Part shown: positions 9,070-38,917 of the stretch, piece by piece
Numbering within the stretch: the first letter of the stretch is position 1
How the letters are laid out: every line of letters starts with the position of its first letter
DNA from: Bdellovibrionales bacterium
GTDB taxonomy: Bacteria > Bdellovibrionota > Bdellovibrionia > Bdellovibrionales > UBA1609
Direction: 5' to 3'
DNA length: 64,000 bases
Assembly (NCBI GenBank): GCA_965261545.1
Contig: CBDHDF010000002.1
Location: 512,001-576,000, forward strand
Notes under the pieces: model-generated
What the model was told of the DNA's origin: nothing
The model's input: only the letters and a program-made list of their open reading frames with translations
The model's database searches: none
Made by a program: the position numbers and the translations under genes

Positions 9070-9499
9070 TGTTAGGCGCCAATTAAAATTGGCCATTTTT
9101 AGAAGCCGTCGCCAATGAAAAACGGCCAGTTGATGATGTACTGATTTAGTTATTCTTCGTTCAGAGTTTAGTCAAGTGTCTTTATTTTGCTCATCATTTA
9201 ACTCGGACTATGCCACAAGATTCTGAGGAATGATTTTCTGCCCACCACTTTTGGCATGACCCCAAATGCATCCTTCAGCCCTATGGCAGAGGTAAATGGA
9301 GTATTTTTCAGGATTCCTTGGCGCAGCTAATGTCTAAAGCTCCGCGAGAGTGACGAGCAAATAGTACGGTAAAAGCCAGTTATCCATAAATTTATCCATG
9401 GCGACACTGCGGCTGTGACCCCGATGTCTAGCAACGCAGTGCTGCTGTGGATAAATTTTGTGGATAACTGGCGAGTTCCTTCCCCAAAAGTGGGGATCT

Positions 9500-11886: not shown

Positions 11887-12315
11887 CCTCCATATTGAAA
11901 GTGGGACATTTTAATTGGCGACGGCTTTAAGGGAAGCCTGTCTTTAGAAAGAAATTCCATGAAAATTGAGGCAAATGTTGGAATCTTGTGGAATTTAAAT
12001 ACTTTAGAAAATGGGCACAGCCTAAACAGGCTTTTCTTGACTATATATTTAACCTCATTGAAATCCAGAAACAGTCTACAAATGACAAATATGGAACCTG
12101 AATAGGCTGTCATGGAAGGACTCTCCAACACGGAGCCCCTTTCCAGGTCGACAAGAACCCAAAAGGAGTTCTTATCAGCTCGGAGCCTTTTTATGAGTAA
12201 TATCAATTGATTATATGCGTCTCGGTTGACAATGCCAAAAATCACCATAGGTCCTCCTCTGAAAAGTGGCCACTTTTCATTGGCGACGGTGGGGCATTTT
12301 AATTGTCAGCTAACA

Positions 12316-13465: not shown

Positions 13466-13582
13466 ATTGCCTACTGTTTAAGAAATAGGAAACCTAGAAT
13501 CCAAGCTAGTGAGCATGAGGAAGCCTTCTAAAGGCTTTCTAAAAAAAACAAAACTGGGTTTAAGCTATCATCGGAAAATACT

Positions 13583-20229: not shown

Positions 20230-21872
20230 CAGCAATTCCCGTCGAAAAATAGTTTAGGCCACAGTAGCGGCTTCCAAAAGATTCGCCTCAAAAAGAGTTC
20301 GTAGACTTTTGCCTAAGTATCTGTTTGAATATTTGTTGTTGCACATCAGACCAAGGAGGGTTCGTCATGTCGCATCAACATTTTAGAAAAGGTCTATCCG
20401 CTTCAGGAATGTATTCCCTGCTACACAGTAAATCTCTTGCAGTTCCAGATATAAGATCGCAGCGTCCCCATAGGATTCCTCTGAGCGATGCCATTATGTC
20501 ATCTGTGGCAATGTTTGCCTTGAAAGATCCATCCATGCTTCAGTTTTGTGATCGTGTCCATGACCCAGTGGCAAAAAACAACCTACACCATTTGTTTCAA
20601 ATAGGCCAAATTCCTAGTGATACGGCTATGCGAGAGATTTTAGATCCTGTTCCAACCCGTGAGTTTCAAAATTTTTTTAAATCTTTGTTTACCGTAGCTC
20701 AAAGAGGGAAGGTTTTGGAGGGTTACCCATATTTGGGTGGAAAATATCTTCTCAGCATTGATGGAACAGGTGCCTTTAGCTCCTCGACTATTCATTGTGA
20801 GAATTGTTGTATAAAGAATCATCGTGATGAGACGAAGACCTACTATCATCAAATGTTAGCAGGAGTGATTGTTCACCCCGATAAGAAACAGGTTATACCT
20901 ATTGCTCCAGAGCCCATTTCAAACACAGATGGATCGAGCAAAAATGATTGTGAGCGTAATGCAGCCAAACGACTCCTTGAAGATTTTCGCAGGGAACACC
21001 CTCACCTTCCAGTGATTGTTATTGAGGATGGATTGGCTTCCAATGCTCCTCACATCACTCTTCTTAACGAATTAAAATTAAGTTATATTTTAGGCTGTAA
21101 GATGGGGGACCACAAAGTTTTATTTGAGTTTGTAAATGGAGCAGATAGCTTAGGAACAGTTTCTCACTTCACCGTGGTAGAGAATGGAGTGACACATGAA
21201 TTTCGATTCATAAATGATGTTTCACTCAATGATTCAAATCCTGATTGTCGAGTGAATTTTATTGAATACAAAGAAACGAAAGCAAACGGTAAGGTTCAGC
21301 ACTTTAGCTGGGTGACTGACATTGAGATCAACGAAGACAACATAATGCAAATAATGAGGGGGGGAAGAGCACGCTGGAAGATAGAAAATGAAACATTTAA
21401 TACGTTAAAGAATTTGGGTTACAACTTTGAGCACAATTTTGGCCACGGCAAGCAAAATTTGTGTAACAATTTAGCCGTGATTATGATGCTGGTATTTTTA
21501 GTGGACCAACTTCAACATTTGGCCTGTAAATTGTTTCAAAAGGCGGTAGAAAAAGAGAGGAGACTATCTTATCTATGGGATCATATGAGGGGGTATTTCC
21601 ATACCCTATACTTTAAAAATTGGCAGGAACTCCTCGCCATAATGGCTTATGGGATTAAGCCTATTGCTGCCTCAGATGTTTTCGACACATCATGAGCAGC
21701 CATTTTTCTCAAAGTGCCCCAAAGAGTTTAACGTATTTGCCCTAAACTAAAGTCTGGACATTCGCCTCTAAATGGCGAAGACGGGGAGGTTTACCTTATT
21801 CGATGCAGTGCAATTCTCACACTGAGATTTGGAGGAATTTCAATGTTTTTTCAAGCTCGGCGGGAATTTCTG
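20230..21872 (+). mobile_element. IS4-superfamily/ISNCY-like IS with DDE transposase (20325-21695)
   Basis: IR CAGCAATTCCCGTCGA / TCGGCGGGAATTTCTG, 9-bp DR TCTCAGTGC; IDGTG, EDGL and RWKIENETFNTLK motifs. Confidence 0.9.
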
Positions 21873-22234
21873 TCTCAGTGCCCATTGGGTTGACTTAGTT
21901 TTCATAAGCTTTGAAGTAGATCCTAAAATTTTAGCACCTCATTTACCTTATGGAACAACACTGGATTTCTTTCATGGAAAAACCTATATCAGCCTCGTAG
22001 CATTTCTATTTAAAGATACCAAATTGGTAGGAAGAATTCCTGCCATCTTTCATCGAAACTTTGAAGAGATTAATCTAAGATTCTATGTTCTCAGGCAAGA
22101 AGGGCAGAATTTAAAAAGAGGGGTTGTTTTCATCAAAGAGTTTGTACCCAAGCCACTTCTTGCTTGGGTGGCACGGACCTTTTATCATGAAAATTATGCC
22201 AGTCTCCCCATATATAGCAAAATCAAAAGGGGAG

Positions 22235-25200
22235 TGTTAGGCGCCAATTAAAATTGGCCATTTTTAGAAGCCGTCGCCAATGAAAAACGGCCAGTTGATG
22301 ATGTACTGATTTAGTTATTCTTCGTTCAGAGTTTAGTCAAGTGTCTTTATTTTGCTCATCATTTAACTCGGACTATGCCACAAGATTCTGAGGAATGATT
22401 TTCTGCCCACCACTTTTGGCATGACCCCAAATGCATCCTTCAGCCCTATGGCAGAGGTAAATGGAGTATTTTTCAGGATTCCTTGGCGCAGCTAATGTCT
22501 AAAGCTCCGCGAGAGTGACGAGCAAATAGTACGGTAAAAGCCAGTTATCCATAAATTTATCCATGGCGACACTGCGGCTGTGACCCCGATGTCTAGCAAC
22601 GCAGTGCTGCTGTGGATAAATTTTGTGGATAACTGGCGAGTTCCTTCCCCAAAAGTGGGGATCTCTAATGAACTTCTTTGGTTGAACTTTCCTCTTTGCT
22701 CTGTTTAGACTTGGCTTTTGCCGATTCGGTTCTCCAACTTTCTTTTCCTTCAATGTTGAGGGTTTCACAGTTGTGAATGATTCGATCAACAGCAGCAGCG
22801 GTGGTAATAGGGTTAAGAAACACCTTATCCCATTCAGAGTATGTTAAGTTTGTAGTGATCATGAGACTTTTCCTTTCATATCGCTGAGATATGAATTGAA
22901 AGAAAAGATCTGCCCCCTCTGTGCAGGAAGCTGTATAGCCAAGTTCATCACAAGCAATAAGATCAAAACGGTCTAATTTCTTAAAAAGAGCATTCAATGA
23001 GAGTTCTTTCTTGCTTTCACGCATTGTTTCAATAAGTTCATGAGTGGTGACCCATAAACATCGATAGCCTTGTTCACAGAGTGAACGAACTAGGGACATG
23101 GCCAAATGACTTTTCCCCATTCCAAAGCTTCCGTAAAACACAACATTACAGGCTTTTCTGACCCACTCTCCCTCTGCCATCCAATTAATTTGCTGAGCTG
23201 TCACTCCCGTTCTTTTCTGGAAGTTATAAGTTTGGAGTGATTTAAGTTGAGGAAGCTTGGCCCCCTTAAGCAATCTTTTCACTCTCTGGGAATGCTTGTC
23301 AGCAAGCTCATTTTGAACGAGTATACCTAAATACTGTTCATACGTCTTTTTTGTTTTTTCGGCAACTCTAGCCGTTGCAACATATTCATCCGCCATCGCT
23401 GGAAGTCGGAGTTTTTTAAGAGAACCTATAAGTTCTTCGTGATTCATTAAGAACCTCCTATGTTTGGAACAAGACTGTCATATTGAGACAATCTAGGTTG
23501 AAGTGGTTTTTGTTGGTCATTCAAATTAATTTTGGTGGGATTGCCTAAGAGCAAATCTTTTATGGATTTAAAGTCGAAAATCTCACGACTTTCTAATTGA
23601 AGCTCCATGGCTGTAGATAAGTCCTGCCAACTCACATGCTGAATCAAGTTGATAACTCTTAAATATTCATGCTCGGCACGGCTTGAATCTTGTTGCTTGA
23701 GGTATTGATAAAAATTTTCAAACACATTTGTTGGAAAAAGAATGGATCGGTGAGCCCATCTTACCATGGCTTGCGGCTTACGAACTAAAGAGGGAAGGAT
23801 ATGTTCAAGAAGAAGACTATGCTCCCCATCAGGTTTTCTTTGATGGCGAGCGACAATTTCTTGCTTCCCTCCTGCACGATAGATCGTGACATGATAGGGA
23901 CCCTGTACGGTTTTACAGGGAGATTGGATCACCTCATCAGGTATGGAATATGTGGTTTTACCTATTCTCAAAGTCCCATAACCATTACTTTGACAAATAT
24001 TCACCTTACAGAGAATATCTTCATCTCGTGGAGGCAAAGGCTTAAGAACTTTGGCCTCCTCCTCAAAGCGAGATTTGGTGGAGTCACTCTGATGCTGATC
24101 CATATAAGACTCTAAAAACTGATTCAAATGATCCCAGTCTTTAAAAACAATTCCTTTGTTTCTAACAATATTTTTTATCCGAGAACTGAAGGTTCGAATA
24201 TCACGCTCCACATCTCCCTTGTCAGAGCCCTTCCCTGCGCGGCAGGGAAGAACCTTAAATCCATAGTATTGGATGGCTCGATCAAAAGATTGGGTGTAAA
24301 TTCGCTGATTTCCTTTAAGAACTTTCTTCACACAGGGAGATAAATTATCAATACGGATGTTCGCACTCATCCCACCTATCTTTTCAAAAAAAGCATGCAC
24401 CCCATCGATGAAACACTCATAGACAAGAAAGGGGTAGGCACGAACCCAACAGGTGCCACTACAAGGCAATGTTCCAAAATGGAGATGAACGATCTGAACA
24501 CCATCGGCAAATGGTAAAGCAACCTTCTCCTTAAAATCAAACTGAGCCTGTTCTCCAGGATCATATCTTTGGCTGAAAAAACGCTCCTTGGGGCGAGAAC
24601 CAAGAATCTCACAAACTCTTCTCTGAACCGTTCTCTCACTCCCACGATAACCCTCCTCAACTAATAGCTCATATATTTCACGGGCGGTGTTACTTGGGTT
24701 CAACTTCAAAAAGTACTTCACCCGATCCATATATCCATTAAGGGGATCTGGGCGAGTTCTTTTGGACCTCGCCTTGTACTTCGGTGGGGTGTTGGACTCA
24801 CAGTACTTGCGCACCGTCTTACGATTGATCCCTAATTCACGAGATATTTCTGTCTTATTTTTACCACTGTGACTCAGGTCACGAATGCGGCCGAAAGTGT
24901 ATTGACTAATCATAAGATCCTCCTCATTGCTAACCTTTTGAGTTGCAAGAGGGAGGGACTCTGTGAGCTTAGTATCTATATCAGAAGAAGAGACTTCATT
25001 GTCTAGTATTTGAACACTCCCTGAAGATTGGTCACTTTTCATTGGCGACAACCTCCATATTGAAAGTGGGACATTTTAATTGGCGACGGCTTTAAGGGAA
25101 GCCTGTCTTTAGAAAGAAATTCCATGAAAATTGAGGCAAATGTTGGAATCTTGTGGAATTTAAATACTTTAGAAAATGGGCACAGCCTAAACAGGCTTTT

Positions 25201-25480
25201 CTTGACTATATATTTAACCTCATTGAAATCCAGAAACAGTCTACAAATGACAAATATGGAACCTGAATAGGCTGTCATGGAAGGACTCTCCAACACGGAG
25301 CCCCTTTCCAGGTCGACAAGAACCCAAAAGGAGTTCTTATCAGCTCGGAGCCTTTTTATGAGTAATATCAATTGATTATATGCGTCTCGGTTGACAATGC
25401 CAAAAATCACCATAGGTCCTCCTCTGAAAAGTGGCCACTTTTCATTGGCGACGGTGGGGCATTTTAATTGTCAGCTAACA
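22235..25480 (-). mobile_element. IS21 type 1, copy 2 (istB 22665-23447, istA 23447-25051)
   Basis: Near-identical to 9070-12315; 5-bp DR GGGAG. Confidence 0.95.
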
Positions 25481-26214
25481 GGGAGAACACTACAAGTACC
25501 AGTGGAGTTCTCACAGTGTAACCGTTCATTCCAGTGGCAAACTACTAAAGGCCACAGAGCAATCCCTGGATCGATGGATTACAGAGCACTACTGGGGTTA
25601 CACTCGCATAGGAGGACCCCATAAAACATGGGAGTACAAAGTTCAACACCCCGTGTGGGACCTCTACGTAGTCACTGGTCACCATTTAGATGTAAACTTT
25701 GAAGCACTTTATGGACAAGAATTTGAAACTTGTACAGCAACTCAGCCCTCCTCTGTAATTTTAGCCCAAGGCTCTGAAGTAAATGTCCACTGGCCTAAGC
25801 ATATCAAAGCAACAGGTCTCCATTCATGAAGGAGAGCCTTAGTCTCTGCCTGAATACTCTAATGACAGGTGCCCTTTTACGTCACTTATGTTGAAAAGAT
25901 TGATAGTTTTTGCCGCCACCCCCTTTCATGCAACCTCATTCACTTTAAAGCCTCTCAGGTCGAACCTCAAGAAATCAAATAGCATAAATAGCGTTGTCCC
26001 AAAAATGGCCTCGTTTAAATAGGAGGTCGCCTTAAATGGACCATGGGTGGTCCATTGAAGATATTTAAATATTTCAGAAAAAAAGTGTGTCATTTCATAA
26101 TGATAAATACTTTTCTTTTGCACACACCTCATATCTTGACCCAAACTTTGGTCAATGGAATGACAGTGAGATGGTGTGAGTTCCTTGAAACCCACTTAGG
26201 TTTGAATACAGATT

Positions 26215-26230
26215 TGGCATGATTTATGCT
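26215..26230 (+). promoter_or_regulatory. Sigma54 (-24/-12) promoter
   Basis: TGGCATGATTTATGCT fits GG-N10-GC and lies upstream of a sigma54 activator gene. Confidence 0.65.
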
Positions 26231-26532
26231 TATAAAAATCTATGAAAGCATTTTTTAATTTACATCATTTGAACTTACATCATAAAGGCTCATATATTTT
26301 TAGGTCTATATTAGAAACCACATCTTTTGATTTACTCCCCATCATAGCCTCTAAATATTACAGGAAAGAAAAGAACTAAGAGGAATTAAGAATAAGGTGT
26401 CACGCCCACCTATATATGAAAGACATGTTCATAACATGAAAGACATGCTCATATAGTTCATATAGATATATAGGTCGTATAAAGGGCTGTAGGCAATAGA
26501 TTCGATTCTACAATAGTGGGAGGTATCAATCA

Positions 26533-27963
26533 ATGAACTATAAAATTCTTATCGCCGATGACCAAGAATCTGTTCTTGATAATTTTCGAGAAATGTTCAA
26601 AAACCATTTGGACATTGAGCCCACCCTGACCCAACAATCCTTGGATGCCTTAAAGCTTATCCAAGAAAACCCCTATGATTATGCCGTTGTTGTTCTGGAC
26701 TATCATTTTGAAGGTCAAAAACTCAATGGAGCGCAGGTGGCTCAAGAGATTCTTAAGATCAACCCCAAGCTGATTGTTCTTATTTGCACAGGGGACATGG
26801 GGCGAGAAGCTCCTATTTCTTGTCTCAAGGCCGGAGTGAGTGACTTCATTCAAAAAGACGAACCCCTTGATAAGATTATTGCTAGAATTAGATCCAATTT
26901 TAGGAAGTTTGATGAACTCTCACGAGTGGTGACAAGCAAATCCACCCAATGTCAGTCCCACCAAAAAGAATTTGAAGATGCATCTCTGATTTCAAAATTG
27001 GGTATGGTCGGTTGCTCTGCATCTATGGCTTCAGTGGCACAAAAGGTCTTGACCTTGAGTAAAAATGGAGGGGATAAATCGACAATACTTATTCGTGGTG
27101 AGTCGGGAACAGGAAAAGAGCTTGTTGCAAGAGCCATTCATGAAAACTCATCTCGAAAGGCAAAGCTTCGCATTGATATCAATTGTGCTTCTATTCCAGA
27201 GGGTCTTTTAGAATCAGAGCTTTTTGGCCATGAAAAGGGAGCCTTTACGGGAGCGGATAAAAAGCGACTTGGTAAGTTTCAGGTGGCCACAGGTGGTACA
27301 ATTTTTCTTGATGAAATTGGTGAAATGCCCAAAGAACTTCAGGCTAAACTTCTTCGAGTCTTACAAGAAAAAACCATTGAACCCATTGGCTCCAACTCTC
27401 CCATACCTGTGGACGTTCGAGTGATTGCCGCAACACATGTGAACCTTGAGGAAAAGGTTGAATCTGGGGAATTTAGGGAAGACCTCTTTTATCGACTGAA
27501 CCAAATACCCCTCTTTATTCCCTCCCTAAGAGAGCGTCCCGAAGACGTTGCCCCCTTGGTCACCCACTTTATGGACAAGCACTCTGGGAGAGAAAAGAAA
27601 AAACTTATGTATAAGACCTTGCAATACTTAAAATCTTACCAGTGGAATGGCAATATTCGTGAACTCGAAAACACCATCAAGCAATTGGTTGTTTTAACCC
27701 CCAGTGATGAGATTCGTCCAGAGCATCTTGATGCTAAGATATTTGAAGCCAACAGCAGGGCGGCCACAATGTCGTATCCAGAGTTTAAAAATATTGTGAA
27801 TAAAAAAGTCGAAGAGGAAGAAAAAGAATTTCTTGTCTCAAGAATAAGAGCTTATCCCTCCTTAAGGGCTGCGGCAAAAGCTCTATCTATACCAAAAACT
27901 TCACTCCAGAGAAAACTCTCTGAATGGGGATATTCTTCAAAGGGCGAGGGGGTGTTGGTATGA
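26533..27963 (+). CDS. Sigma54-dependent response regulator (NtrC family: REC-AAA+-Fis HTH)
   Basis: ILIADD, VVLDY, GESGTGKE, ESELFGHEKGAFTGA, FREDLFYRLN, WNGNIREL. Confidence 0.96.
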   Translation: MNYKILIADDQESVLDNFREMFKNHLDIEPTLTQQSLDALKLIQENPYDYAVVVLDYHFEGQKLNGAQVAQEILKINPKLIVLICTGDMGREAPISCLKAGVSDFIQKDEPLDKIIARIRSNFRKFDELSRVVTSKSTQCQSHQKEFEDASLISKLGMVGCSASMASVAQKVLTLSKNGGDKSTILIRGESGTGKELVARAIHENSSRKAKLRIDINCASIPEGLLESELFGHEKGAFTGADKKRLGKFQVATGGTIFLDEIGEMPKELQAKLLRVLQEKTIEPIGSNSPIPVDVRVIAATHVNLEEKVESGEFREDLFYRLNQIPLFIPSLRERPEDVAPLVTHFMDKHSGREKKKLMYKTLQYLKSYQWNGNIRELENTIKQLVVLTPSDEIRPEHLDAKIFEANSRAATMSYPEFKNIVNKKVEEEEKEFLVSRIRAYPSLRAAAKALSIPKTSLQRKLSEWGYSSKGEGVLV

Positions 27964-30774
27964 GTTTCTTAAAAACAATGGAAGACTATCTACTCAAAAA
28001 GGCTATAAAGCATATTGGAGGCCAAAAAAACATGGCCATTCAACTGGACATTACAAATGCCTGCAATCTTAAATGTTCCCACTGTTACCATTCCAATCAT
28101 AAAAATACGGGAGCTTTAAACCTTGAAGGCTGGCTTGAGATTCTTGACCAGTACGACAAGATGCTTCAAACTCTCAAGCTACAACCCTATATTGTGATTT
28201 GCGGTGGGGAACCCACATTAAGCCCCCTGAATTCATGGTTAAAAATATACACCAGGATTATTCTTCTTCAAAAATTTTGAAAAAATCTCATTTTCAAAGG
28301 GAAAATTCAATTTTTTCTTAGATTTTAATAAAAAATCTATTTTCATTTTCTCAAAAATGGTGTATAAAATATACACCATGACAAAGGGGGTGAAATGAGT
28401 TTTATAAGAAGAATAAAGAAAAAGAACGGTCAAGTTTATTTAGCTGAGGTTGAAAATAAGTGGATTGATGGTAAGTCTGTGCAAAAACACATTCGTTATC
28501 TTGGCAAAGAAGTCGACGGTGAAACAGTAATTTCTCTTTCATCAAAAGATCTTCAAGTTGATAGTGTAAAAATTTATGGCCCACTTCTTGTATTTCATAG
28601 TATTGCGAAGAAGATTAATCTTCCAGATATTCTAGGAGAATATTCTAATGAAATATTAAGTATGGTTTATGCTCATTGTATGGATTATAAGAGTGTTCAC
28701 AAAATGCCATCATGGTATAAGCGTACAGATTTAAATCTTCTTTTAGGTTTAGACAAGCTAACAGAAAATCGTTTAGTCTCAGCCATGGATAATCTAAATG
28801 AATCTAAGATACATGAATATCAAAGAAATATCTTTAACAATGTAAAGAAGATATATAAATTAAATTCAAAAGGAATTGTTTACGATGTAACAAATACTTA
28901 TTTTCATGGAAAAACATGTGGTTTTGGAGAGAAAGGAAAGAGTAAAGATGGCAAACGTCAAAATGACCTCATACAAATAGGTTTAGCAACAACTCAAAAA
29001 GAAGGCATCCCAGTTTTTCATAAAAGTTTCAAGGGAAATATTCATGACAGTAGAACCTTAATGTCTCTTTCAGATAGTTTTAGTGAGTACCGATTGAATT
29101 CAGGTTTATTTGTATATGACCGAGGCATCACCTCTGAAAAAAACCTAAATTCTATAGGTAAAATGGGCTGGAAAACACTTTGTGGATTAACAATGAGAGA
29201 AAAAGAAAAGAATGCCATTAGAAAATTGTTGAAGAAGGGGTCTATGGATCAATTTTCTAACATGGTTCAAATAAATGGAAATGTTATTTATGTCAAAGGA
29301 ATTCCACACAAATTTGGATCGATTAAAGGAAAATTAGCCATTTGTTATAATGAGACTAAGAGAATAGAGATTAAAGAATCTAGAAGAAACAAAATTGTGG
29401 AAGCTCAGAAATTAATAAATGAAAATAAAGAAATTTTGATCGGTCTTGATAAATATTTAACTTCTACAGGAAGATTAAGAGAATTCGTACTTCAAAATGC
29501 TGAAGAATTTGATGGATACTCATGTATTTTTTGTACTAAAAATATACCTGATGAAGATATGGTAAGACTTTATTATGATAAAGATATTATAGAAAAAGCA
29601 TTTCGTACTCTTAAGGGAGTATCAAAGTTAAGGCCTATTCGATTTAGATTAAAAAAACGTGTGGAGACTCACGTGTTTATATGCTATTTATCTTATCTTA
29701 TACTATCAATTTTAAAATTAAACTTAAAATCTAAAGGCATAGATATATCGTCAGAAAAAGCAATTGAAGATTTAGAGGATATGTACAATGTTTATTTTTG
29801 TGATAATAAAAAGAAAAATAAATTTATTAGATCTGTGACTTTAAGTAAACATCAAGAAAGAATATTACGATCAGTAGACTCAAATGTTCTCAAAAACCAT
29901 GTGATACGCCCTTAAGAAACCTGGTGTATACTTCTGGGCAGAAATTCAGGTAAGCCCTTATCTCTTTTCTATTCTAAAAAGAGCCAATGAGCTTTGGGAA
30001 AGTCCCACCATTACGATTCTCACCAATGGCACAAGGCTTACGGACAAACTACTGTCTTCCCTCAGTGAGTACAATATGCGGTTTCAAGTCTCTTTAGATG
30101 GCCCTGATGCTAAGAGGCATGATGCTCTTCGTGGTAAAGGGAATTTCCAAAAGGCACTGGAGGGAGCCAAACGGGCAAAGCAGTACGGCATTGAGACAAA
30201 CATTTTAAGTATTTTATCAAAGAAGACCTCCCATTGGATTCCAGAGTTCTTTCAAATGGCCAAGGAAAACAGCCTTGATTCCATGAGTTTTACAAGATTT
30301 ATCCCACAGGGTTTTGGCGCAGAACTTGTCGAAACGGGTGGGGATGATTCCTTATATGGTTTTGAGTTAAGAGATGCCATGCAGTCCATCATCCATTTTT
30401 CAGAAAAATATGAAGTTCCAACTTCAACAGACCACCCCTTATATCACCTCATTGACCCCACGCTTGGTCATAATGGCCGTTTTGGATTTCAGGGCCTTGT
30501 TGTGGATTACAAAGGTAACTTGAAGGTCTCCAGCAGAGCCGACTACATACTTGGAAATATACTCGACGAAGGTCTTCAAAATTTATTTTTACACCATCCT
30601 TTGATGAAGGATTTGAGAACCCCCCAAAAGATCAATGGGTGCGGTGCTTGTATGTATTATACCCGATGTGGTGGAAATAGAAATATAAGCTATGCCACAA
30701 CAGGAAGTTTCTTAGAAAAAGATAAAGGATGTTGGATTCCGTCAGCATCTACAAAGAAAGGAGTTGTCGCATGA
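27960..30774 (+). pseudogene. Radical SAM/SPASM-domain enzyme split by IS1634
   Basis: CNLKCSHC, GGEPTLSP|YLFSIL...ILTNGT...QVSLDG and CGACMYYTRC...GCW. The frame is restored when 28226-29950 and one TAAGCCC are removed. Confidence 0.92.
28226..29950 (+). mobile_element. IS1634-family element (transposase 28395-29915)
   Basis: CCTGAATT / AATTCAGG ends; DR TAAGCCC; YDVTNTYF, YDRG and IEKAFRTLK..LRPI motifs. Confidence 0.92.
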
Positions 30775-31145
30775 AGAAGTTAATAAGAAAAAGTATTTTA
30801 GGAATTATATCTCTTATGCCAATACAAGCATTAGGATTTGCTTCAGATTTTTCCTCAATTTTTTTATCAGACATATATGAAGATAGTGCTCCAAATACTG
30901 CAAACCAAGAATATGAAAAAGAACTTGTGAGACGACTTGAAGAGGGAACACTGTCTCATAAATATTATGATTTCATGGAAAAGCATAGAATACATAGCAC
31001 GGATGATCTATTGTCTTCTCGATCTCAGAATCATTTAAAGAAGCTCACAAGAGAATTTATTAAAGATATCCATGAACCACTTCTTGCAAGTAAAAATGTG
31101 ATATTATCAGAAAATCTAAGCGACGCATGGCCAAAGAAAAAATGA
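30771..31145 (+). CDS. Small secreted protein (124 aa); candidate radical SAM substrate or precursor
   Basis: ATGA overlap with the radical SAM stop; AAGGAG RBS; Sec-type signal MKKLIRKSILGIISLMPIQALG; C-terminus ...LSDAWPKKK. Confidence 0.75.
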   Translation: MKKLIRKSILGIISLMPIQALGFASDFSSIFLSDIYEDSAPNTANQEYEKELVRRLEEGTLSHKYYDFMEKHRIHSTDDLLSSRSQNHLKKLTREFIKDIHEPLLASKNVILSENLSDAWPKKK

Positions 31146-32698
31146 AAAATAAAAAGGATTTTTGTATAATGAAGAAAATATTATTTTTAACTACCTTAAT
31201 TATGGCTATATCTTTTATTTATTGGATAGGTAGCCAAAAGGAGAAAGGTGAGATGATCTTAAAAGTAGGATATCCTGGCAATTGGCATGACCTTATACCA
31301 TCACTTCAACATACGGCTTATGCTGACGATATCATGCATAACCAATTTGAAACATTAGTTGTTATTGGCAGAAATGGAAAATCTGAAAGCATGGCCGCCA
31401 AATCGTGGTCCATCAGTGATGACAAAAGATCATTTACTTTCAATATTGATACAACTCGTAAATTCTCCAATGGAGTTTCGTTATCAGCAACTCACTTCAA
31501 GGAGGCATGGGAGTATAGTCTCACCATTGATCCAAAATCTTCAAATAATAGCTTACTCGATGTTCTTTATAAAATTAAAGGATTTGAAGACTATGAAAAA
31601 AATGGAGAAATATCTGGAATTAAGGTTATTGATGACTCTACTTTAAGAATTGACTTTCAGAATACTTTTCGCATAGGTCTCAATCATTTGGCTGGAACAA
31701 GAATGGCTGCCTTCATAAGGGAAGGAAATAAGTTTCTTGGCACAGGACCCTATGTCATCAACCCAATAAGCAGTGAAGAGCTTCTTCTTACTAAAAATAA
31801 TTTCTATGAAGAGTCGATACCTTTTGACAAGGTGAGCGTCAAAGTTGTTCCTCCTCAGCATTCTCGTGATGCGCTAGGAAGAGGTGAAATTGATCTTTAT
31901 AAATTTGCTGAGATTGGTTATATTGATTCTTGCTTTGATAAAAATGTAGAATGTATTTCTGGCTCTGAAAATCGCCATATAGCTATAGCACTTAACGGAA
32001 TGAAAAAGCGTCTTCTAAGCAATACCAACCATCGGAAAGCCCTTCAATATTTATTCTTTGAGAGTTTCACTGACAAAGATATACCAGAAGAAGATCGTTT
32101 AAAAATTCAAATTGACCCCCAAATATTTTTACCTCTTCAGGCAGGAAGACTTGAAGACAAGGAGGCAAGTAGAATTATCCATGAAGGAAAAAAATATGTG
32201 GATGATTTTATTAAGGCAACCCATGAGAGTCCTCTCTATCTAGCAGTATCTAATAGCGTATTATGGTACAAATCTTATCTTGAAAAGAAAGGAGTCCAAT
32301 TTTCTGAAAATTCTATTGATTTTCAAGGGGAGGAACTGGCAAAAATGTATTATAAGACCTTTGAACCAGATATGATGATTTCATACAAAAGCGTTTTTGA
32401 TGGTGACCCTGATGGAATATATCATACTATCGGAGAAAAAGGAGCTATCAGTTCGCCCATGTTATACCGCAAAGATGTGCTAAAACTTCTTGAAGAAGGC
32501 CGTAAAATACTTTCTTTTAAAGATTTATCTTCACATTACGAAAAAGTGGCAAGAGCTTTTTTGCATGAAATTCCATTTATTCATGTGGGTTTCCTAAAAG
32601 AAATGTCTATCATAAGAAAAGATTCTGTAAAATCAGAAAATAATTACAATCATCGTAATAGTGTTCGGTTTACAAGCTACCACCCCATGAGGAAGTAA
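31142..32698 (+). CDS. OppA/DppA-like (family 5) solute-binding protein, N-terminally anchored
   Basis: QFETLV...AAKSWSISDDKRSFTF, GTGPY; ATGA overlap with the previous gene; no adjacent permease or ATPase genes. Confidence 0.85.
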   Translation: MKNKKDFCIMKKILFLTTLIMAISFIYWIGSQKEKGEMILKVGYPGNWHDLIPSLQHTAYADDIMHNQFETLVVIGRNGKSESMAAKSWSISDDKRSFTFNIDTTRKFSNGVSLSATHFKEAWEYSLTIDPKSSNNSLLDVLYKIKGFEDYEKNGEISGIKVIDDSTLRIDFQNTFRIGLNHLAGTRMAAFIREGNKFLGTGPYVINPISSEELLLTKNNFYEESIPFDKVSVKVVPPQHSRDALGRGEIDLYKFAEIGYIDSCFDKNVECISGSENRHIAIALNGMKKRLLSNTNHRKALQYLFFESFTDKDIPEEDRLKIQIDPQIFLPLQAGRLEDKEASRIIHEGKKYVDDFIKATHESPLYLAVSNSVLWYKSYLEKKGVQFSENSIDFQGEELAKMYYKTFEPDMMISYKSVFDGDPDGIYHTIGEKGAISSPMLYRKDVLKLLEEGRKILSFKDLSSHYEKVARAFLHEIPFIHVGFLKEMSIIRKDSVKSENNYNHRNSVRFTSYHPMRK

Positions 32699-34413
32699 TG
32701 AATATTATAACTCTTAAGCAATGGTTTTTTAGAAATACGAGATTCCCCCTGATTACATTAGGTTCTGTGGTAGCTCTTGTACAGATTGCCTTTCTTATCC
32801 ATACTCACAAGGAATTAAGAAAAGGGCAAGACAAAGCTATTCGTAATCTTGTTGCCACAGTTGCAAATATTGGTATTCAACAAAAAAACAGAACCCTCCT
32901 TGAGTCATCATTTCAGCTTGCCATTGAAGAGCTTGGAGTGAAGTCTATGATTGTGTGCAAAGGGTCAAGGCGTCTTTTTCATCAACCTGCTGGGTTTGGG
33001 AGTTGTCCAAATCCTCCGCAATCCAATTCATATCAATACATCATTGAAATTAACCCTTCGGGGTTTCATGAATACAAATTTTATTTTTATGTGAGTCGAT
33101 TCCCTCTTAATTTTTCACTTGTGGCTCTTAACGGTATTACTCTTATATTCTTAATCATTGTATTTCGCATCATATACAAAATTCAAAGAAAATTCCATGA
33201 TGATATTTTATTTCCATTAAAAGACGCATTAAAGGATGATTTATCTGAAAAAAATAAATTTCAAATTAATGAACTTAATTCTATCAGGGAAACATTCGAT
33301 GAACATCGTAAGTCAAAAGAAAAACAGGCCATTGCTGGAGCTATTGTTGAGCATAACATGAATATTAACCATAATATTAAATCCATTAAACAAACTCTTG
33401 ATGTTATCATATCGGGAGAATTTTCTTCAAACAGACAAAAGAAACGATTTCATCAAGTTTCAAATGATTTTACAAGGCTTATGGCCAAGGTGGCTGAACA
33501 AATACCCGATAGAAATCAGGCCCAACTTATTACATCAGATAAAACATTCTTTGAATATCTTGAAGAAGGAAACCAAAAAAAGACAAAAGTAAACGTCAAA
33601 GATGCCTTTGAAATTGCTATCGAGCATAAAAAAATTGAAACGAAGGCACATGCAGAAGATATTCATATTGATCTTTCTTATAAAGATGAAATCAAAAATT
33701 TATTCATTGAGGCTGTGGACCCTGAACTAAGAGGTATTCTTTCCAATTTGATGAATAATTCCATTGATTCAAAGGCCACTCATATTCAAATCGAGTTGTG
33801 CAAAAAAGATTCTAATCTTGTAGCTACCCTGGTTGATAATGGTGCAGAAATCCCTGAAGATATTAAGAAAAATATTTTCCATCGCGGTTTTAGTTGGGGT
33901 AAAGAGAAGGGGACAGGCTATGGACTTTACCATGCTCAAAAATTCATAGAGTCATGGGGTGGAGAACTGAACCTCTTAAAAAGTAAGACAAGAAGTAAAG
34001 ACGGAAGTAAAAAAGGACAAACAATTTTTGAAATAAGGCTGCCCCTATGGAAGCCCTCACCTATAAATCTTGATTCAAAAAGCCATATAGTGATAGTGGA
34101 TGATGAGGAATCAGTCCATAGCAAATGGTCTGAAAAGATAACATCCATCAATCCAAGTGCGAAAGTCCTCCACTTCAAGAAACCCCATGAGTTTCAAGTT
34201 TGGTTTAGCGGCAATCATGTCTTTTCTGACCATGTATTCTTTTTTGATAGCGACCTTGGAGACAATGAAGAAACTGGAGAACATTTGATAGATGAGATGG
34301 GTCTTAATCATATGTCCTACCTTGTCACAAACAACTATAACAATTCAAAGTTAGCAAGCTGGTGTAACAAGAGGTCCATTCAGGTGATCCCCAAGGGTTA
34401 TTTGTTGGGTTAA
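32698..34413 (+). CDS. Membrane hybrid sensor histidine kinase with C-terminal receiver
   Basis: Two TM segments; HNIKS H-box; LSNLMNNS, DNG and GTGYGL boxes; VIVDDE...FFDSDLG receiver. Confidence 0.9.
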   Translation: MNIITLKQWFFRNTRFPLITLGSVVALVQIAFLIHTHKELRKGQDKAIRNLVATVANIGIQQKNRTLLESSFQLAIEELGVKSMIVCKGSRRLFHQPAGFGSCPNPPQSNSYQYIIEINPSGFHEYKFYFYVSRFPLNFSLVALNGITLIFLIIVFRIIYKIQRKFHDDILFPLKDALKDDLSEKNKFQINELNSIRETFDEHRKSKEKQAIAGAIVEHNMNINHNIKSIKQTLDVIISGEFSSNRQKKRFHQVSNDFTRLMAKVAEQIPDRNQAQLITSDKTFFEYLEEGNQKKTKVNVKDAFEIAIEHKKIETKAHAEDIHIDLSYKDEIKNLFIEAVDPELRGILSNLMNNSIDSKATHIQIELCKKDSNLVATLVDNGAEIPEDIKKNIFHRGFSWGKEKGTGYGLYHAQKFIESWGGELNLLKSKTRSKDGSKKGQTIFEIRLPLWKPSPINLDSKSHIVIVDDEESVHSKWSEKITSINPSAKVLHFKKPHEFQVWFSGNHVFSDHVFFFDSDLGDNEETGEHLIDEMGLNHMSYLVTNNYNNSKLASWCNKRSIQVIPKGYLLG

Positions 34414-34535: not shown

Positions 34536-37500
34536 ATGGAAGGTAAATATCTCATGTCGAATTATAAAAAAATACGAAAATTAATAGATGGTTTAATGGA
34601 AGAATATAATGATGGTAGATATATATTTAGGGGGATTAATCAAACAAATAAAAAATATAATAAGAAGCAAGTTCACTCTTCCATTTTTCGAAAATTTTTT
34701 GATAAAGGCATATGGCATAACTCATTCAATCCACTGTATATTGAAGAGCTAACTGTGGAGGGAGCAAAGAAATATTTTTCGCTTAGCACAAGAAATATAG
34801 AAATTTTAACTAACTTACGTCACTATGGTTGCGATGTTAATCTTATAGATTTTACTCATAATCCATATATTGCTTTATTTTTTTCTTGCGTTGGAGAAAT
34901 TTCAGAAGAAGAAGGCGTTGAAGAAAATGGTCAATTCATATGCCTAAAATCTAATGAATTAAAATATCTTAAAGATATTGATTATTCTTATTTAAAAACT
35001 GCTTCTAATATTGGGTTGATAGAACCTTCTTATAATTCCTCCATCTCGAATAGAATCATAGCTCAGGATAGTGTTTTTGTATGTTCACCAAAAGGATATC
35101 TTGATGATGAGATGAATGGTCTCCACATTAAAAAAATAAAACATGATGATAAAATAATGATCCTAGACTATTTGATGAAGGTTCATCATATATTTGAAGC
35201 AACTATTTACAACGATGTTATTGGATTTATTAAAAATGAAGAAAATACCAAGCCCTACATGATTCATTTTTATAAAGGGTTATCCTTAAATACTCTTACA
35301 AATGAGAGCAAAGAAAATGATACTAAATCTCTTTATAAGAAATCAATCATAGAATATGATTCATCTATTAAATCATATTCTCTTTTTCCTTTATCTTATT
35401 TAAGTAGAGGCTCTGCAAAGCAAGAATTAGGTAAGACAAAAGAAGCCATCATTGACTACGATAAGGCTATTGAGTTGCTGCCGAAGATTGGTGTATACTA
35501 TGATTATCGAGGTTCCGCAAAACAAGAATTAGGTGAATTAGAAGAAGCCATCATTGATTACGATAAGGCTATTGAATTAAACCCCGAGATTAGTGAATAT
35601 TATTTTAATAGAGCTTCCGCAAAACAAGAGTTAGGTGAATTAGAAAAAGCCATCATTGACTACGATAAGGCTATTGAATTAAACCCCAAAATTAGTAAAT
35701 ATTATTCTAGTCGAGCCTGGGCAAAGATGGAATTAGGTAAGATAGATGAAGTTATCATTGACTACGATGAGGCTATTAAATTAGACCCTAAAACTAGTCA
35801 ATATTATTCTAATCGAGCCCTGGCAAAGATGAAATTAGGTAAGATAGATGAAGCCATCATTGACTGCGATAAGGCTATTAAATTAGACCCTAAAGTTAGT
35901 CATTATTATTCTAATCGAGCCCTGGCAAAGATGAAATTAGGTAAGATAGATGAAGCCATCATTGACTGCGATAAGGCTATTAAATTAGACCCTAAAATTA
36001 ATCATTATTATTATGATCGAGGCTTGGCAAAGATGGAATTAGGTAAGATAGATGAAGCTATCATTGATTACGATAAAGCTATTAAATTAGACCCTAAAAT
36101 TAGTGAGTATTATTCTAGTCGAACCCTGGCAAAGATGGAATTAGGTAAGATAGATGAAGCTATCATTGACCACGATAAAGCTATTAAATTAGACCCTGAA
36201 ATTAGTCATTATTATCATCATCGAGGCTTGGCAAAGATGGAATTAGGCAAGACAAAAGAAGCTATCATTGACTACGATAAATCTATTGAATTAGACCCTG
36301 AAATTAGTCATTATTATCATCATCGAGGCTTGGCAAAGATGGAATTAGGCAAGACAAAAGAAGCTATCATTGACTACGATAAAGCTATTGAATTAGACCC
36401 TGAAATTAGTCATTATTATCATCATCGAGGCTTGGCAAAGATGGAATTAGGCAAGACAAAAGAAGCTATCATTGACTACGATAAATCTATTGAATTAGAC
36501 CCTGAAATTAGTGGATATTATGCTGATCGAGGCTTGGCAAAGATGGGATTAGGCAAGACAAAAGAAGCTATCATTGACTACGATAAAGCTATTGAATTAG
36601 ACCCTAAAATTAGTGGATATTATGCTGATCGAGGTGTTTTAAAATACAGATTGAGTGAAATAAAAGAAGCTATCATTGACTACGATAAAGCTATTGAATT
36701 AGACCCTAAAATTAGTGGATATTATGCTGATCGAGGTGTTTTAAAATACAGATTGAGTGAAATAAAAGAAGCTATCATTGATTACGATAAAGCTATTGAA
36801 TTAGACCCTAAAATTAGCCATTATTATTTTGATCGAGCCTTGGCAAAGATGGAATTAGGTAAGACAGATGAAGCTATCATTGACTACGATAAAGCTATTG
36901 AATTAGACCCTAAAATTAGTCATTATTATTATCATCGAGGCTTGGCAAAGATGGGATTAGGTAAGACAAAAGAAGCTATCATTGATTACGATAAAGCTAT
37001 TAAATTAGATCCTAAAATTAGTGAGTATTATTCTAGCCGAGCCCTGGCAAAGATGGAATTAGGTAAGATAGATGAAGCTATCATTGACCACGATAAAGCT
37101 ATTGAATTAGACCCTAAAACTAGTCACTATTATTTTAGTCGAGCCCGAGCAAAGATGAAATTAGGTAAGATAGATGAAGCTATCATTGACTACGATGAAG
37201 CTATTGAATTAGACCCTGGAATTAGCAAATATTATGCTGAACGAGGTCTTTTGAAATACAAACTAAATGAAATACAAGAAGCTATTTTTGATTATGATAA
37301 GGCTATTGAATTAGACCCTAAAATTAGTCATTATTATTATGGTCGAGGCTTGGCAAAGATGGAATTAGGTAAGACAGATGAAGCTATCATTGACTACGAT
37401 GAGGCTATTAAATTAGACCCTAAAACTAGTCACTATTATTCTAGTCGAGCCCGAGCAAAGATGGAATTAGGTAAGATAGATGAAGCTATCATTGACTACG

Positions 37501-38045
37501 ATGAAGCTATTGAATTAGACCCTAAAACTAGTCACTATTATTTTAGTCGAGCCCGAGCAAAGATGAAATTAGGTAAGATAGATGAAGCTATCATTGACTA
37601 CGATGAAGCTATTGAATTAGACCCTGGAATTAGCAAATATTATGCTGAACGAGGTCTTTTGAAATACAAACTAAATGAAATACAAGAAGCTATTTTTGAT
37701 TATGATAAGGCTATTGAATTAGACCCCGAAATTAGTGGATATTATTTTTGTCGAAGCTTGGCAAAGGAAAAATTAGACGAATTAGAAGGATCTCTGTTAG
37801 ATTGTGAAAAAGCTATTGAATTAGAAAAAAATAATGGAGAACTTTATTATAAACGAGCAGTTTATAAGTCTAAACTAGGTAGAAATCATAAAGAGATTCA
37901 TGACGACATAGATATATTTAAGAAGTTAGTAAATGCGCTAACAAATGACTTAATAAGTGATATTAATAATATGAAAAATCAGACTGACAAATATCCTAAA
38001 CTTAAATATTTGATAAATTATATAAAAAATAAGTTCGATATGTAA
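34536..38045 (+). CDS. FRG-domain protein with about 24 TPR repeats
   Basis: YIFRG, LRHYG..NLIDFTHNPYIALFFS and NRIIAQDSVF motifs; 34-aa (102-bp) TPR tandem array at about 35395-37850. Confidence 0.9.
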   Translation: MEGKYLMSNYKKIRKLIDGLMEEYNDGRYIFRGINQTNKKYNKKQVHSSIFRKFFDKGIWHNSFNPLYIEELTVEGAKKYFSLSTRNIEILTNLRHYGCDVNLIDFTHNPYIALFFSCVGEISEEEGVEENGQFICLKSNELKYLKDIDYSYLKTASNIGLIEPSYNSSISNRIIAQDSVFVCSPKGYLDDEMNGLHIKKIKHDDKIMILDYLMKVHHIFEATIYNDVIGFIKNEENTKPYMIHFYKGLSLNTLTNESKENDTKSLYKKSIIEYDSSIKSYSLFPLSYLSRGSAKQELGKTKEAIIDYDKAIELLPKIGVYYDYRGSAKQELGELEEAIIDYDKAIELNPEISEYYFNRASAKQELGELEKAIIDYDKAIELNPKISKYYSSRAWAKMELGKIDEVIIDYDEAIKLDPKTSQYYSNRALAKMKLGKIDEAIIDCDKAIKLDPKVSHYYSNRALAKMKLGKIDEAIIDCDKAIKLDPKINHYYYDRGLAKMELGKIDEAIIDYDKAIKLDPKISEYYSSRTLAKMELGKIDEAIIDHDKAIKLDPEISHYYHHRGLAKMELGKTKEAIIDYDKSIELDPEISHYYHHRGLAKMELGKTKEAIIDYDKAIELDPEISHYYHHRGLAKMELGKTKEAIIDYDKSIELDPEISGYYADRGLAKMGLGKTKEAIIDYDKAIELDPKISGYYADRGVLKYRLSEIKEAIIDYDKAIELDPKISGYYADRGVLKYRLSEIKEAIIDYDKAIELDPKISHYYFDRALAKMELGKTDEAIIDYDKAIELDPKISHYYYHRGLAKMGLGKTKEAIIDYDKAIKLDPKISEYYSSRALAKMELGKIDEAIIDHDKAIELDPKTSHYYFSRARAKMKLGKIDEAIIDYDEAIELDPGISKYYAERGLLKYKLNEIQEAIFDYDKAIELDPKISHYYYGRGLAKMELGKTDEAIIDYDEAIKLDPKTSHYYSSRARAKMELGKIDEAIIDYDEAIELDPKTSHYYFSRARAKMKLGKIDEAIIDYDEAIELDPGISKYYAERGLLKYKLNEIQEAIFDYDKAIELDPEISGYYFCRSLAKEKLDELEGSLLDCEKAIELEKNNGELYYKRAVYKSKLGRNHKEIHDDIDIFKKLVNALTNDLISDINNMKNQTDKYPKLKYLINYIKNKFDM

Positions 38046-38120: not shown

Positions 38121-38333
38121 TTATTTACTATTTTGTTTCACTGCCTTACCTTGCTTTTCTCTTGGCCCCTTCGAGTCGCTGAGCAGAGCATCTGTAAATT
38201 TGGTTGTTGGGGTCAAGCCACGAAGAATTTGCTTCGTAGCTGCCTCTTGGAAGAATTGAAAAACCTCCACGGCAGAAAAATACATAAAGACCCAAAATAA
38301 AGTGCCTACGATTAAATCGGTCAATGCTTTCAT
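38121..38333 (-). CDS. Small (70 aa) membrane-anchored or secreted protein
   Basis: GGAGG RBS 6 nt before the ATG; hydrophobic N-terminus. Confidence 0.6.
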   Translation of the reverse strand: MKALTDLIVGTLFWVFMYFSAVEVFQFFQEAATKQILRGLTPTTKFTDALLSDSKGPREKQGKAVKQNSK

Positions 38334-38840
38334 GATATACCTCCATTTATGATTTGAGTTTGTCTCTCATTTTTTGGTGAGGGTGTTGATTTTATCTTTT
38401 TAAATCTCAACCCTAGGTGCTAAAGCTCACAGAACAGGCCATCATTAGAATGACCCAGAAATGGGTCGTCGTTCTTTGTCCCCTGGTTTATGACCCAAAA
38501 GTGGGTCATAAGAAGAAGAGGATGCGACACAGTGTATAAAAATTTTGTGCGATCCATGGAACAAAACAGTTAAGGGGAACTCCATACAAGAAATGGGGTT
38601 CCACACCCGTCGAGCTGACCAGTTCCAATCCCGTCCGTCCGTTTTGGCCTCCTGTTAGGACAGCACCTCAAAAATCCAAGATGGGATCGGTCACCCAAAG
38701 GTCACCCAAAAGTCACCCAACTTTGAAATAGTCTGAAATTCTCACAAATACAAAGACCCAGAGAGTTTCTCACTTGTGTATTATTAAGTACTTAGAACGA
38801 TTGAGGAATTAGGAATGTAGCGAAAAGAGGTGTCGCAGCT

Positions 38841-38917
38841 TGGTCAGCCCGACTGGATTTGAACCAGCGACCTCCACCACCCCAAGGTGACGCGCTACCG
38901 GGCTGCGCTACGGGCTG
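38841..38917 (-). tRNA. trnP: tRNA-Pro (GGG)
   Basis: CAGCCCG TAGCGCAGCCCGGTAGCGC GTCACC TTGGGGT GGTGG AGGTC GCTGGTTCAAATCCAGT CGGGCTG ACCA; 77-nt cloverleaf with encoded CCA. Confidence 0.97.

Follow-up and report, generated by a model that had tools for sequence, protein, structure and literature searches.

A candidate self-activating sensory operon with a radical-SAM enzyme, a small exported protein and a transporter-less binding protein, disabled by IS1634 in a Bdellovibrionales genome

We analyzed a stretch of 64,000 nucleotides from a Bdellovibrionales bacterium (positions 512001–576000 of contig C2 in a genome of 4.3 Mb and 11 contigs), referred to below as the window. It carries five adjacent genes, here called the cassette, which encode an NtrC-type sigma54 activator (the regulator), a radical S-adenosylmethionine (radical-SAM) enzyme, a small exported protein, a family-5 solute-binding protein (SBP) and a hybrid sensor histidine kinase (HK). 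In the reading that we favor, and for which our confidence and our doubt are about evenly balanced, the window holds a copy, disabled by an insertion sequence (IS), of a conserved self-activating sensory operon, in which the enzyme would mature the Sec-exported small protein and SBP and HK would act as the sensor.

All five genes lie on the plus strand, and both the listing of open reading frames (ORFs) and our reading of the sequence placed them and their stop/start overlaps where a preliminary description of this DNA had put them. The regulator gene (26533–27963, 476 aa; ORF listing and Pfam) is joined to the radical-SAM gene by an ATGA at 27960. The latter is cut by an IS into a 5’ part with the cluster motif CNLKCSHC (27960–28225) and a 3’ part with the auxiliary-cluster cysteines CX2CX5C...C (29958–30774), and is joined to the small gene by a second ATGA at 30771. 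The small gene (30771–31145) encodes 124 aa, comprising a signal peptide ending in GFA in front of SD, a helical core and a disordered variable tail. Its stop codon is overlapped by an in-frame ATG at 31142, from which the SBP would have 518 aa; a second ATG at 31127 would give 523 aa (31127–32698). The SBP, which has an N-terminal hydrophobic segment and no transporter, is followed across a TAATG at 32696–32700 by the HK gene (32698–34413, 571 aa) with H-box, N and G boxes and a C-terminal receiver fold. The five cassette genes are evidently translationally coupled.

The element that splits the radical-SAM gene is a member of the IS1634 family of 1725 bp (28226–29950, plus strand; transposase gene 28395–29915), as judged by a transposase score of 234.3 bits with NCBIfam NF033559 (cut-off 100). 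Its terminal inverted repeats are imperfect (arms 28226–28262 and 29914–29950) and it is flanked by a 7-bp target duplication, TAAGCCC, at 28219–28225 and 29951–29957. When the element and one duplicate are removed the two halves of the gene are in frame. Five near-full copies of the element are present in the genome, and since two full-length copies and one of 1638 bp elsewhere are 100% identical to that in the window, the insertion is recent. With its enzyme gene split the window copy cannot function alone, and it is best described as a fresh pseudogene version of the cassette. Two further copies exist in the same genome: the copy on contig C11 (locus L007) is intact, whereas the window copy lacks the enzyme and the copy on contig C10 (locus L008) lacks the regulator. 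Downstream of the kinase the window has a gene for an FRG/TPR protein, C11 one for a protein of 1319 aa with weak AAA matches and C10 one for a TonB-dependent receptor. Because these neighbors differ among the three copies, the cassette unit ends at the kinase.

We scanned public genomes, one per species, with an alignment of five SBP sequences; an earlier alignment of two sequences had given 173 pattern matches, none of which was confirmed. The scan yielded 21 public loci, 19 of them labeled Bdellovibrionota or a subgroup (Bdellovibrionia, Bdellovibrionales, Bdellovibrionaceae, Bacteriovoracaceae, Halobacteriovoraceae, Pseudobdellovibrionaceae, Oligoflexales, Oligoflexus tunisiensis Shr3 on contig NZ_BDFO01000001), one ‘uncultured bacterium’ and one Elusimicrobia. 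ORFs of at least 100 aa from 23 loci (L007, L008 and L025–L045) were clustered all against all. The SBP occurred in all 23 loci, by construction as it was the query, the enzyme and the kinase in 21 each and the regulator in 18, while every other ORF family was confined to at most four. Bdellovibrionia loci begin with the regulator, followed by enzyme, small gene, SBP and kinase; in Oligoflexales the regulator is shifted to the end. The same gene order in 21 independent public loci lifts the arrangement far beyond chance, so that the conserved neighborhood expected in the preliminary description is indeed there. The SBP had also been described as lacking an ABC partner, and no ABC permease or ATPase family was common to more than four of the 23 loci, orphan permeases elsewhere in the genome not being part of this search. 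A literature search, which did not cover supplements, found no description of this five-gene arrangement.

The distribution was further assessed in 401 genomes sampled evenly across the phylum, with cut-offs of E ≤ 1e-40 for the SBP and E ≤ 1e-50 for the enzyme. The SBP family was found in 22 genomes (about 5%) and 21 of 204 genera, the enzyme family in 16 genomes and both families in 15. As counted from the match tables, 17 of the 21 enzyme matches have an SBP match no more than 2 kb away on the same contig and strand; the remaining four are partial or on contigs without an SBP match, two of them at contig ends. Several genomes have more than one copy: three in the present genome and in FG-2, two in G004 and in the ACE_BDE3 assembly, and in G397 two enzyme matches, one with an adjacent SBP match. 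The cassette is, by these counts, a sparse accessory trait found almost only in Bdellovibrionota. Among four related cassettes protein identity was 68–92% for the enzyme, 54–67% for the SBP, 50–65% for the HK and 40–57% for the small protein, which diverges fastest. One locus has an unusual layout (L036, CAZJDM010000104.1, 2083–8705): two SBP genes flank the enzyme gene, the small gene has 59 aa and a regulator gene was not found upstream on the contig. In four loci (L027, 12467–16644; L030; L031; L042) two paired genes, for products of about 1000 aa and about 390 aa, follow the cassette or lie next to it.

Upstream of the regulator gene a sigma54-type −24/−12 promoter, TGGCATGATTTATGCT, is located at 26215–26230 on the plus strand (TGGCAT-N5-ATGC), matching the GG-N10-GC promoter noted before; it is identical in the three copies. 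A palindrome TTGACC-N8-GGTCAA (26136–26155, plus strand) lies 79 bp upstream of the promoter and is a candidate enhancer site, and a second one, TGGACC-N6-GGTCCA (26037–26054, plus strand), about 177–178 bp upstream is a candidate regulator site. The proximal palindrome occurs exactly three times in the genome, once per cassette copy and each time 79 bp before the promoter, and the exact site marks no further target elsewhere in the genome. GGACC-N6-GGTCC has four occurrences in 4.3 Mb, three of them before the cassette copies. The 665 bp upstream of the regulator gene show a mean column identity of 97% among the three copies. Diverged loci share this arrangement with altered arms: TGACC(C)...(G)GGTCA palindromes 65–72 bp upstream of the promoter in L025, L026, L029, L034 and L052, and variant arms in L027 (GTCCCA-N4-TGGGAC, 65 bp upstream) as well as in L032, L033 and L035 (TGTCC...GGACA, further upstream). 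Fourteen of the 23 loci have the strict sigma54 motif at the 5’ end of the cassette, which accounts for 14 of its 17 plus-strand occurrences in 392.6 kb; in Oligoflexus it precedes the enzyme gene. The gene rpoN is present in the genome. The conserved sigma54 promoter together with the palindromic upstream sites makes it very likely that the operon is activated by its own regulator, in agreement with what had been proposed.

The three copies differ in the leader of about 300 nt that separates promoter and regulator gene (window 26370–26440), through expansion of a 20-nt AAGAAGAATTAAG-type repeat and through a 10-nt indel; in other genera the promoter is far nearer to the start codon, at a distance of roughly 35–90 nt in most loci. 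An internal palindrome, TGACCCCACGCTTGGTCA, at window position 30453 in the radical-SAM gene was considered as a further site and rejected; since it encodes the conserved IDPTLGH and no sigma54 motif follows downstream, it was taken as a by-product of coding. Outside the cassette, at 38452–38508, the window contains two palindromes, TGACCCAGAAATGGGTCg and TGACCCAAAAGTGGGTCA, 39 bp apart and of the same type as the upstream sites of L026, L034 and L052. They lie between an ORF of 70 aa (38121–38333, minus strand) and a tRNA-Pro gene (38841–38917, minus strand), with a triple GGTCACCCAAA repeat at 38680–38712, and no sigma54 motif was found near them on either strand. Possibly they represent a relic of the control region of a fourth cassette or a second target of the regulator.

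We compared the three genomic copies along their length. Window and C11 are 98.3–100% identical over window positions 13494–34411 (C11 counterpart G000:C11:294710–307719), with 99.9% over 29951–34411, and the similarity stops exactly at the kinase stop codon. The duplicate in the window is broken by four IS that are absent from C11, at 15880–17159, 20231–21872, 22235–25480 and 28226–29950. These have, in the same order, 17, 11, 33 and 5 near-full copies in the genome, mostly 99.6–100% identical: an rve-type element of 1280 bp, an element of 1642 bp, an IS21-type element of 3246 bp (copies at least 99.7% identical; in the window also at 9070–12315) and the IS1634 element. The IS families are in active expansion in this genome, and the window region is a recent segmental duplicate later hit by IS elements. 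This origin replaces the mobile island suggested earlier, there being no integrase or transfer genes that would connect the cassette with one. In the C10 copy the regulator gene is split by an IS21-type element. Here the upstream region, the regulator gene and the 5’ end of the enzyme gene are 96–98.6% identical to the window and the remainder of the enzyme gene 89.7%, while small gene, SBP and kinase reach 68% in DNA and 40%, 57% and 65% in protein, values as low as between genera. We read C10 as an old paralog with a recent gene-conversion tract that would end inside the enzyme gene.

The intact enzyme of C11 (L007 9000–10082, 360 aa) matched Pfam PF04055 with 86 bits (cut-off 29.5); the two halves in the window gave 29.3 and 24.4 bits. 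Cysteines C35, C39 and C42 of the CX3CX2C motif are invariant in 18 of 18 homologs, which places the protein in the radical-SAM superfamily. Four further cysteines, C317, C320, C326 and C347, are invariant in the same homologs and form a CX2CX5C motif followed by one cysteine 21 residues on. The SPASM motif consists of seven C-terminal cysteines binding two auxiliary clusters. Of the earlier assignment as a radical-SAM/SPASM enzyme the first part is therefore retained and the second is not, with four such cysteines present and no match to Pfam SPASM at E ≤ 1. The missing cysteines are presumably those holding the first SPASM auxiliary cluster. NCBIfam models of the SPASM type do align with their ends to the C-terminus, in every case below cut-off. 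None of the 25 best NCBIfam equivalog families, of 64 matched, reached its cut-off, the best being TIGR04053 with 128.7 versus 395 bits. By sequence the nearest solved relatives are SkfB and the anaerobic sulfatase-maturating enzyme, with a match in the core only. An anaerobic sulfatase-maturating system, whose substrates carry the motif (C/S)-x-P-x-R, was considered and rejected: TIGR03942 gave 64 versus 349 bits and the motif was not seen in the aligned small proteins. At E ≤ 1e-20 the enzyme family has 305 members in a collection of 5.8 billion proteins, with source names of a general kind only. In all 18 sequences about 25 residues precede the cluster motif, ORF-call extensions aside, and Pfam detected no leader-recognition domain; we do not count the enzyme among the maturases that bear an RRE.

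A profile built from five homologs of the small protein gave 36 matches at E ≤ 0.001 among 1.84 billion representative proteins, all of 68–124 aa, and the protein belongs to no Pfam, NCBIfam or PADLOC family. The signal peptide is its most conserved part. In an alignment of 29 sequences P17 and A24 are the only invariant residues, both within the N-terminal hydrophobic segment (consensus LLSLLPIxSISFA), at whose end lies an S/A-x-A site of the signal-peptidase type; Y65 and L80 hardly vary. Different synonymous codons are used for the conserved residues of the signal peptide, indicating that the constraint acts on the protein. Export by Tat was considered for the RRSILG found in some homologs and rejected: a twin arginine is present in L008, L019, P0010 and P0012, the window has RK, and most sequences have KK, KR or K alone. 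As most sequences lack the twin arginine, the signal was read as Sec. AlphaFold2 predicts a helical core (helices at 43–110) with a predicted local distance difference test score (pLDDT) of 94–98 over residues 51–100 and lower values in the tail from about 111. A fold search of the PDB gave no match at E ≤ 0.001 (best E 2.4), and a look-up in the ESM Atlas no usable match. Gly, Ala and Ser are abundant in the tail, whose last 3–10 residues are variable. For the window protein this end had been proposed as the modified core (SDAWPKKK, with its Trp), a view that the alignment does not support: Trp occurs in 4 of the 29 aligned tails and in L036, L039, L040 and L042, making it recurrent and not conserved, and other tails read SAIPPN, SQITGEH and SSILPD. 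In three loci the protein has 52–60 aa, of which 28–35 lie beyond the predicted cleavage site; these versions keep the signal peptide and a Gly-rich tail without the helical core. Two Oligoflexus loci have very divergent ORFs in which, by eye, the SFAA motif alone is kept.

The position of the small gene links it to the enzyme. Its profile, which may include some of the matched proteins, matches an ORF between the enzyme and SBP genes in 17 of 21 loci, and three more were recognized by eye from the N-terminal motif. In the window, L025, L026, L027, L037 and L052 the stop codon of the enzyme gene and the start codon of the small gene overlap as ATGA. Five loci have SBP and HK genes without the enzyme gene (L043, L047, L049, L050 and L051), and in these the profile detected no small gene; six-frame reading upstream of the SBP in four of the five found no small ORF. 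A sixth enzyme-less locus, L048, runs off the contig end. The small gene directly follows the enzyme gene and was seen in no locus that lacks it; it tracks the enzyme, not the sensor. Enzyme homologs had been predicted to adjoin a small exported gene, and this co-occurrence is the strongest computational argument for the small protein as substrate of the enzyme.

On the sensor side, the SBP matched SBP_bac_5 (PF00496) with 95.5 bits against a cut-off of 32.4 and thus belongs to family 5; we do not class it as a component of an ABC importer. Its profile matched solved peptide- and nickel-binding proteins with a best E of 2.5e-25 over the N-terminal half only, and the nearest solved relatives bind peptides, nickel complexes, murein peptide, heme or opines. 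Homologs show, by eye, a hydrophobic segment about 10–15 residues before the domain, two with a lipobox-like Cys and the rest without a clear cleavage site, so the SBP may be tethered to the membrane. A complex of SBP residues 41–523 (alignment of 23 rows) and small-protein residues 25–124 (29 rows), predicted without controls, scored 0.17 and 0.00 against a mark of 0.32, a result that weighs neither for nor against binding. The HK has, by eye, two hydrophobic segments around an outer domain of about 100 aa. It matched HATPase_c with 60.2 bits, all 16 sequences compared share the His of its H-box, and conservation extends to the N and G boxes. The C-terminal 115 aa were modeled with a pLDDT of 92.7, and the Foldseek matches listed from the PDB are almost all receiver domains (TM score about 0.57–0.74). 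The description as a hybrid kinase is hence upheld by fold, Pfam being blind to the receiver: neither HisKA nor Response_reg matched in the HK. In a profile-profile comparison the C-terminus resembled the receiver of the regulator weakly (probability 8%), and the Oligoflexales copies no longer show the receiver landmarks. The regulator itself matched Sigma54_activat (229.6 bits), Response_reg (54.4 bits) and, below the cut-off of 27, HTH_50 (21.5 bits). It has the receiver landmarks, an AAA+ domain with a GAFTGA read in the sequence and a C-terminal HTH, as in NtrC-type sigma54 enhancer-binding response regulators; no NCBIfam equivalog reached its cut-off (best PEP_resp_reg, 339 versus 502.6 bits).

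We propose the following course of events. The cytoplasmic radical-SAM enzyme would put a small modification on the precursor, in analogy to bufferins, and the modified precursor would be exported by Sec and trimmed by signal peptidase. The SBP would serve as a co-receptor of the kinase, as in LuxP-LuxQ and AioX-AioS; the kinase would control the regulator, which would bind the palindromes and activate the operon’s own promoter, resulting in positive feedback. The most speculative step concerns the ligand of the SBP, which would be the matured product of the cassette itself, either the small protein or its variable tail. This would close a self-signaling loop, with paralogous copies as separate channels. 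It is plausible that the cassette product is the ligand of its own sensor, as the fast divergence of the small protein, the divergent copies within one genome and the positive feedback all favor it. To our knowledge, peptide quorum sensing has not been described in Bdellovibrionota. A more specific version, in which the signal peptide doubles as leader of the enzyme, a membrane-held OppA-type receptor and the hybrid kinase read the product or its tail, and paralogs form private channels sharing a regulator type, we put forward as a tentative suggestion that could easily be wrong.

Several observations weigh against the favored reading. No residue outside the signal peptide is invariant in the 29 small proteins, and consequently no common modification site is visible. 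On the side of the enzyme, only four of the seven C-terminal SPASM cysteines are conserved, and as an RRE/PqqD-like leader-recognition domain takes about 80–100 aa, the short stretch before the enzyme core leaves no room for it. SBP-HK sets, with or without the regulator, exist without enzyme and small gene, from which it follows that the sensor can work on another ligand. No Hpt is encoded among the conserved cassette genes, a search for Hpt that did not extend to the rest of the genome. The strict sigma54 motif went undetected in 9 of 23 loci; a looser match exists in three of these, and for another, L037, the available upstream sequence was just 86 bp. Decay is frequent as well: 4 of the 21 enzyme matches contain in-frame stops, several SBPs are split, and the copies in the window, C10 and G030 are interrupted by IS; in G030 an IS stands where the end of the small gene and the greater part of the SBP would be. 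The modification, binding and phosphotransfer steps of the loop are inferred, their basis being sequence throughout.

The stand-alone SBP-HK(-RR) sets would also fit a sensor of outside signals such as a foreign or prey peptide, a muropeptide or a metal complex, in which case the modified small periplasmic protein would be an output with a protective, metal-binding or antagonistic role and there would be no self-sensing. The range of ligands bound by the solved SBP relatives agrees with this explanation, and so does the restriction of the exact palindrome to sites before cassettes, by which the operon’s own products look like the output. Bufferins, moreover, are periplasmic modified small proteins with a non-signaling role (PMC11626156). 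An output protein does not readily explain why the small protein diverges fastest, in the C10/C11 pair together with SBP and HK, or why single genomes hold several divergent copies, and the aligned small proteins have no Cys-rich or metal-binding motif. We regard a sensor of outside signals as possible and yet doubtful.

The conservation of the N-terminal hydrophobic segment with its invariant P17 and A24, and a core predicted with confidence as a small helical domain, could also point to a role as accessory kinase regulator comparable to CpxP, ZraP or MgrB, exerted through the hydrophobic N-terminus or the helical core. The enzyme would then work on a small-molecule ligand or on the SBP, which would suit the lack of an RRE and best family matches that include the tetrapyrrole-modifying AhbD and NirJ, all far below cut-offs. 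However, the small gene was never seen without the enzyme gene and is translationally coupled to it, some homologs retain 28–35 residues after cleavage and no helical core, and the hydrophobic segment ends in a signal-peptidase-type site, and we consider such a role unlikely. That the window copy merely belongs to a decaying gene cluster, a relic without present function, as the split enzyme gene, the IS-swamped genome (33, 17, 11 and 5 near-full copies of four elements) and the stops and splits in other genomes might suggest, is very improbable given that its other four genes are intact and 99.9% identical to the intact C11 copy, that the IS is 100% identical to other copies and hence a recent arrival, and that the family is conserved at the protein level.

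Some features of the neighborhood were recorded in addition. The FRG/TPR protein behind the window copy (34536–38045, 1169 aa) combines an FRG domain at its N-terminus with over 20 TPR repeats, and this N-terminus matches the PADLOC candidate defence family PDC-S15 (E 5.6e-16); as the other two copies have different downstream genes we place it outside the cassette. A defence system was considered for the cassette itself and rejected, as PADLOC gave only generic matches (a viperin-type radical-SAM core with 66 bits and an RtcR-type AAA+ for the regulator) and none for small protein, SBP or HK. In the window the IS21-type element has inserted into a DUF2071 gene (21829–22251, continuing from 25481), which is intact in C11 (L007 6068–6859). 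At 13583–15637 on the minus strand the window encodes a protein of 684 aa with PKD and four DUF285 repeats, the gene showing a 75-nt periodic repeat in staggered self-matches. The window stretch was found in five sequencing runs from two studies, and among those listed there was no RNA run.

If the self-signaling loop we favor is real, a group of Gram-negative bacteria that are mostly predators would have a peptide or protein signal passing from cell to cell. Its components, a radical-SAM enzyme, a precursor exported by Sec and a co-receptor of the OppA type, are not known to act together. The enzyme would also represent a second enzyme class for Sec-exported modified peptides after bufferins. 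A more sober view is that of an undescribed radical-SAM family with a clear candidate substrate and a single auxiliary-cluster motif. With about 6.5 kb, including its own promoter and the candidate binding sites, the circuit is compact and can be tested in a reporter strain.

Parts of the cassette resemble several known systems. With PrgZ and other OppA-type pheromone binders it shares a family-5 protein for a short peptide signal, and PDB 4faj is among the profile matches of the SBP; PrgZ passes its peptide to an ABC importer, whereas no importer is conserved beside the cassette SBP. The geopeptide system likewise combines a radical-SAM maturase with a small peptide, although the cassette precursor has a Sec signal peptide, and we rejected an identity of the two as TIGR04280 gave 36.9 bits against a cut-off of 400 and TIGR04229 (cut-off 30) no match. 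Bufferins are precursors of 80–120 aa with a Sec signal that are modified by a neighboring cytoplasmic enzyme, trimmed by signal peptidase and located in the periplasm (PMC11626156). In both cases a long Sec-signal precursor stands beside the gene for a cytoplasmic, here putative, modifying enzyme; the bufferins differ in having MNIO and DUF2063 enzymes, Cys-rich copper-binding precursors and no known attached binding protein or kinase.

Binding protein, kinase and sigma54 regulator form one sensory unit also in the Aio system, whose AioX belongs to a binding-protein family other than family 5. AioX-AioS-AioR is a three-component system for arsenite in which the three are cotranscribed (PMC6011840). 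Its ligand comes from outside, namely arsenite, and an enzyme/precursor pair is not known to be part of it. The proposed positive feedback finds its counterpart elsewhere. The autoinducing circuits ComQXPA, agr and nisin NisRK of Gram-positive bacteria combine a modifying enzyme, a precursor, a kinase and a regulator in a positive feedback loop, as proposed here for the cassette. The conserved regulator end and the divergent precursor/sensor block of C10 and C11 recall the pherotype polymorphism of these systems, although the breakpoint, seen in a single pair, may reflect plain gene conversion. They differ from the cassette in having no binding-protein co-receptor, other enzyme classes, dedicated exporters and no sigma54. 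LuxP-LuxQ-LuxU-LuxO of Vibrio consists of a transporter-less periplasmic co-receptor, a hybrid kinase and, at the end of the pathway, a sigma54 activator. LuxP, which belongs to a different class of binding proteins, has as ligand a small molecule that LuxS produces, and an Hpt is needed; moreover, the system is not one self-activated operon and has neither a radical-SAM enzyme nor a small protein. What it has in common with the cassette is the line from a binding-protein co-receptor and a hybrid kinase to a sigma54 activator, and the NCBIfam LuxO model scored 275 bits with our regulator, short of its cut-off of 800.

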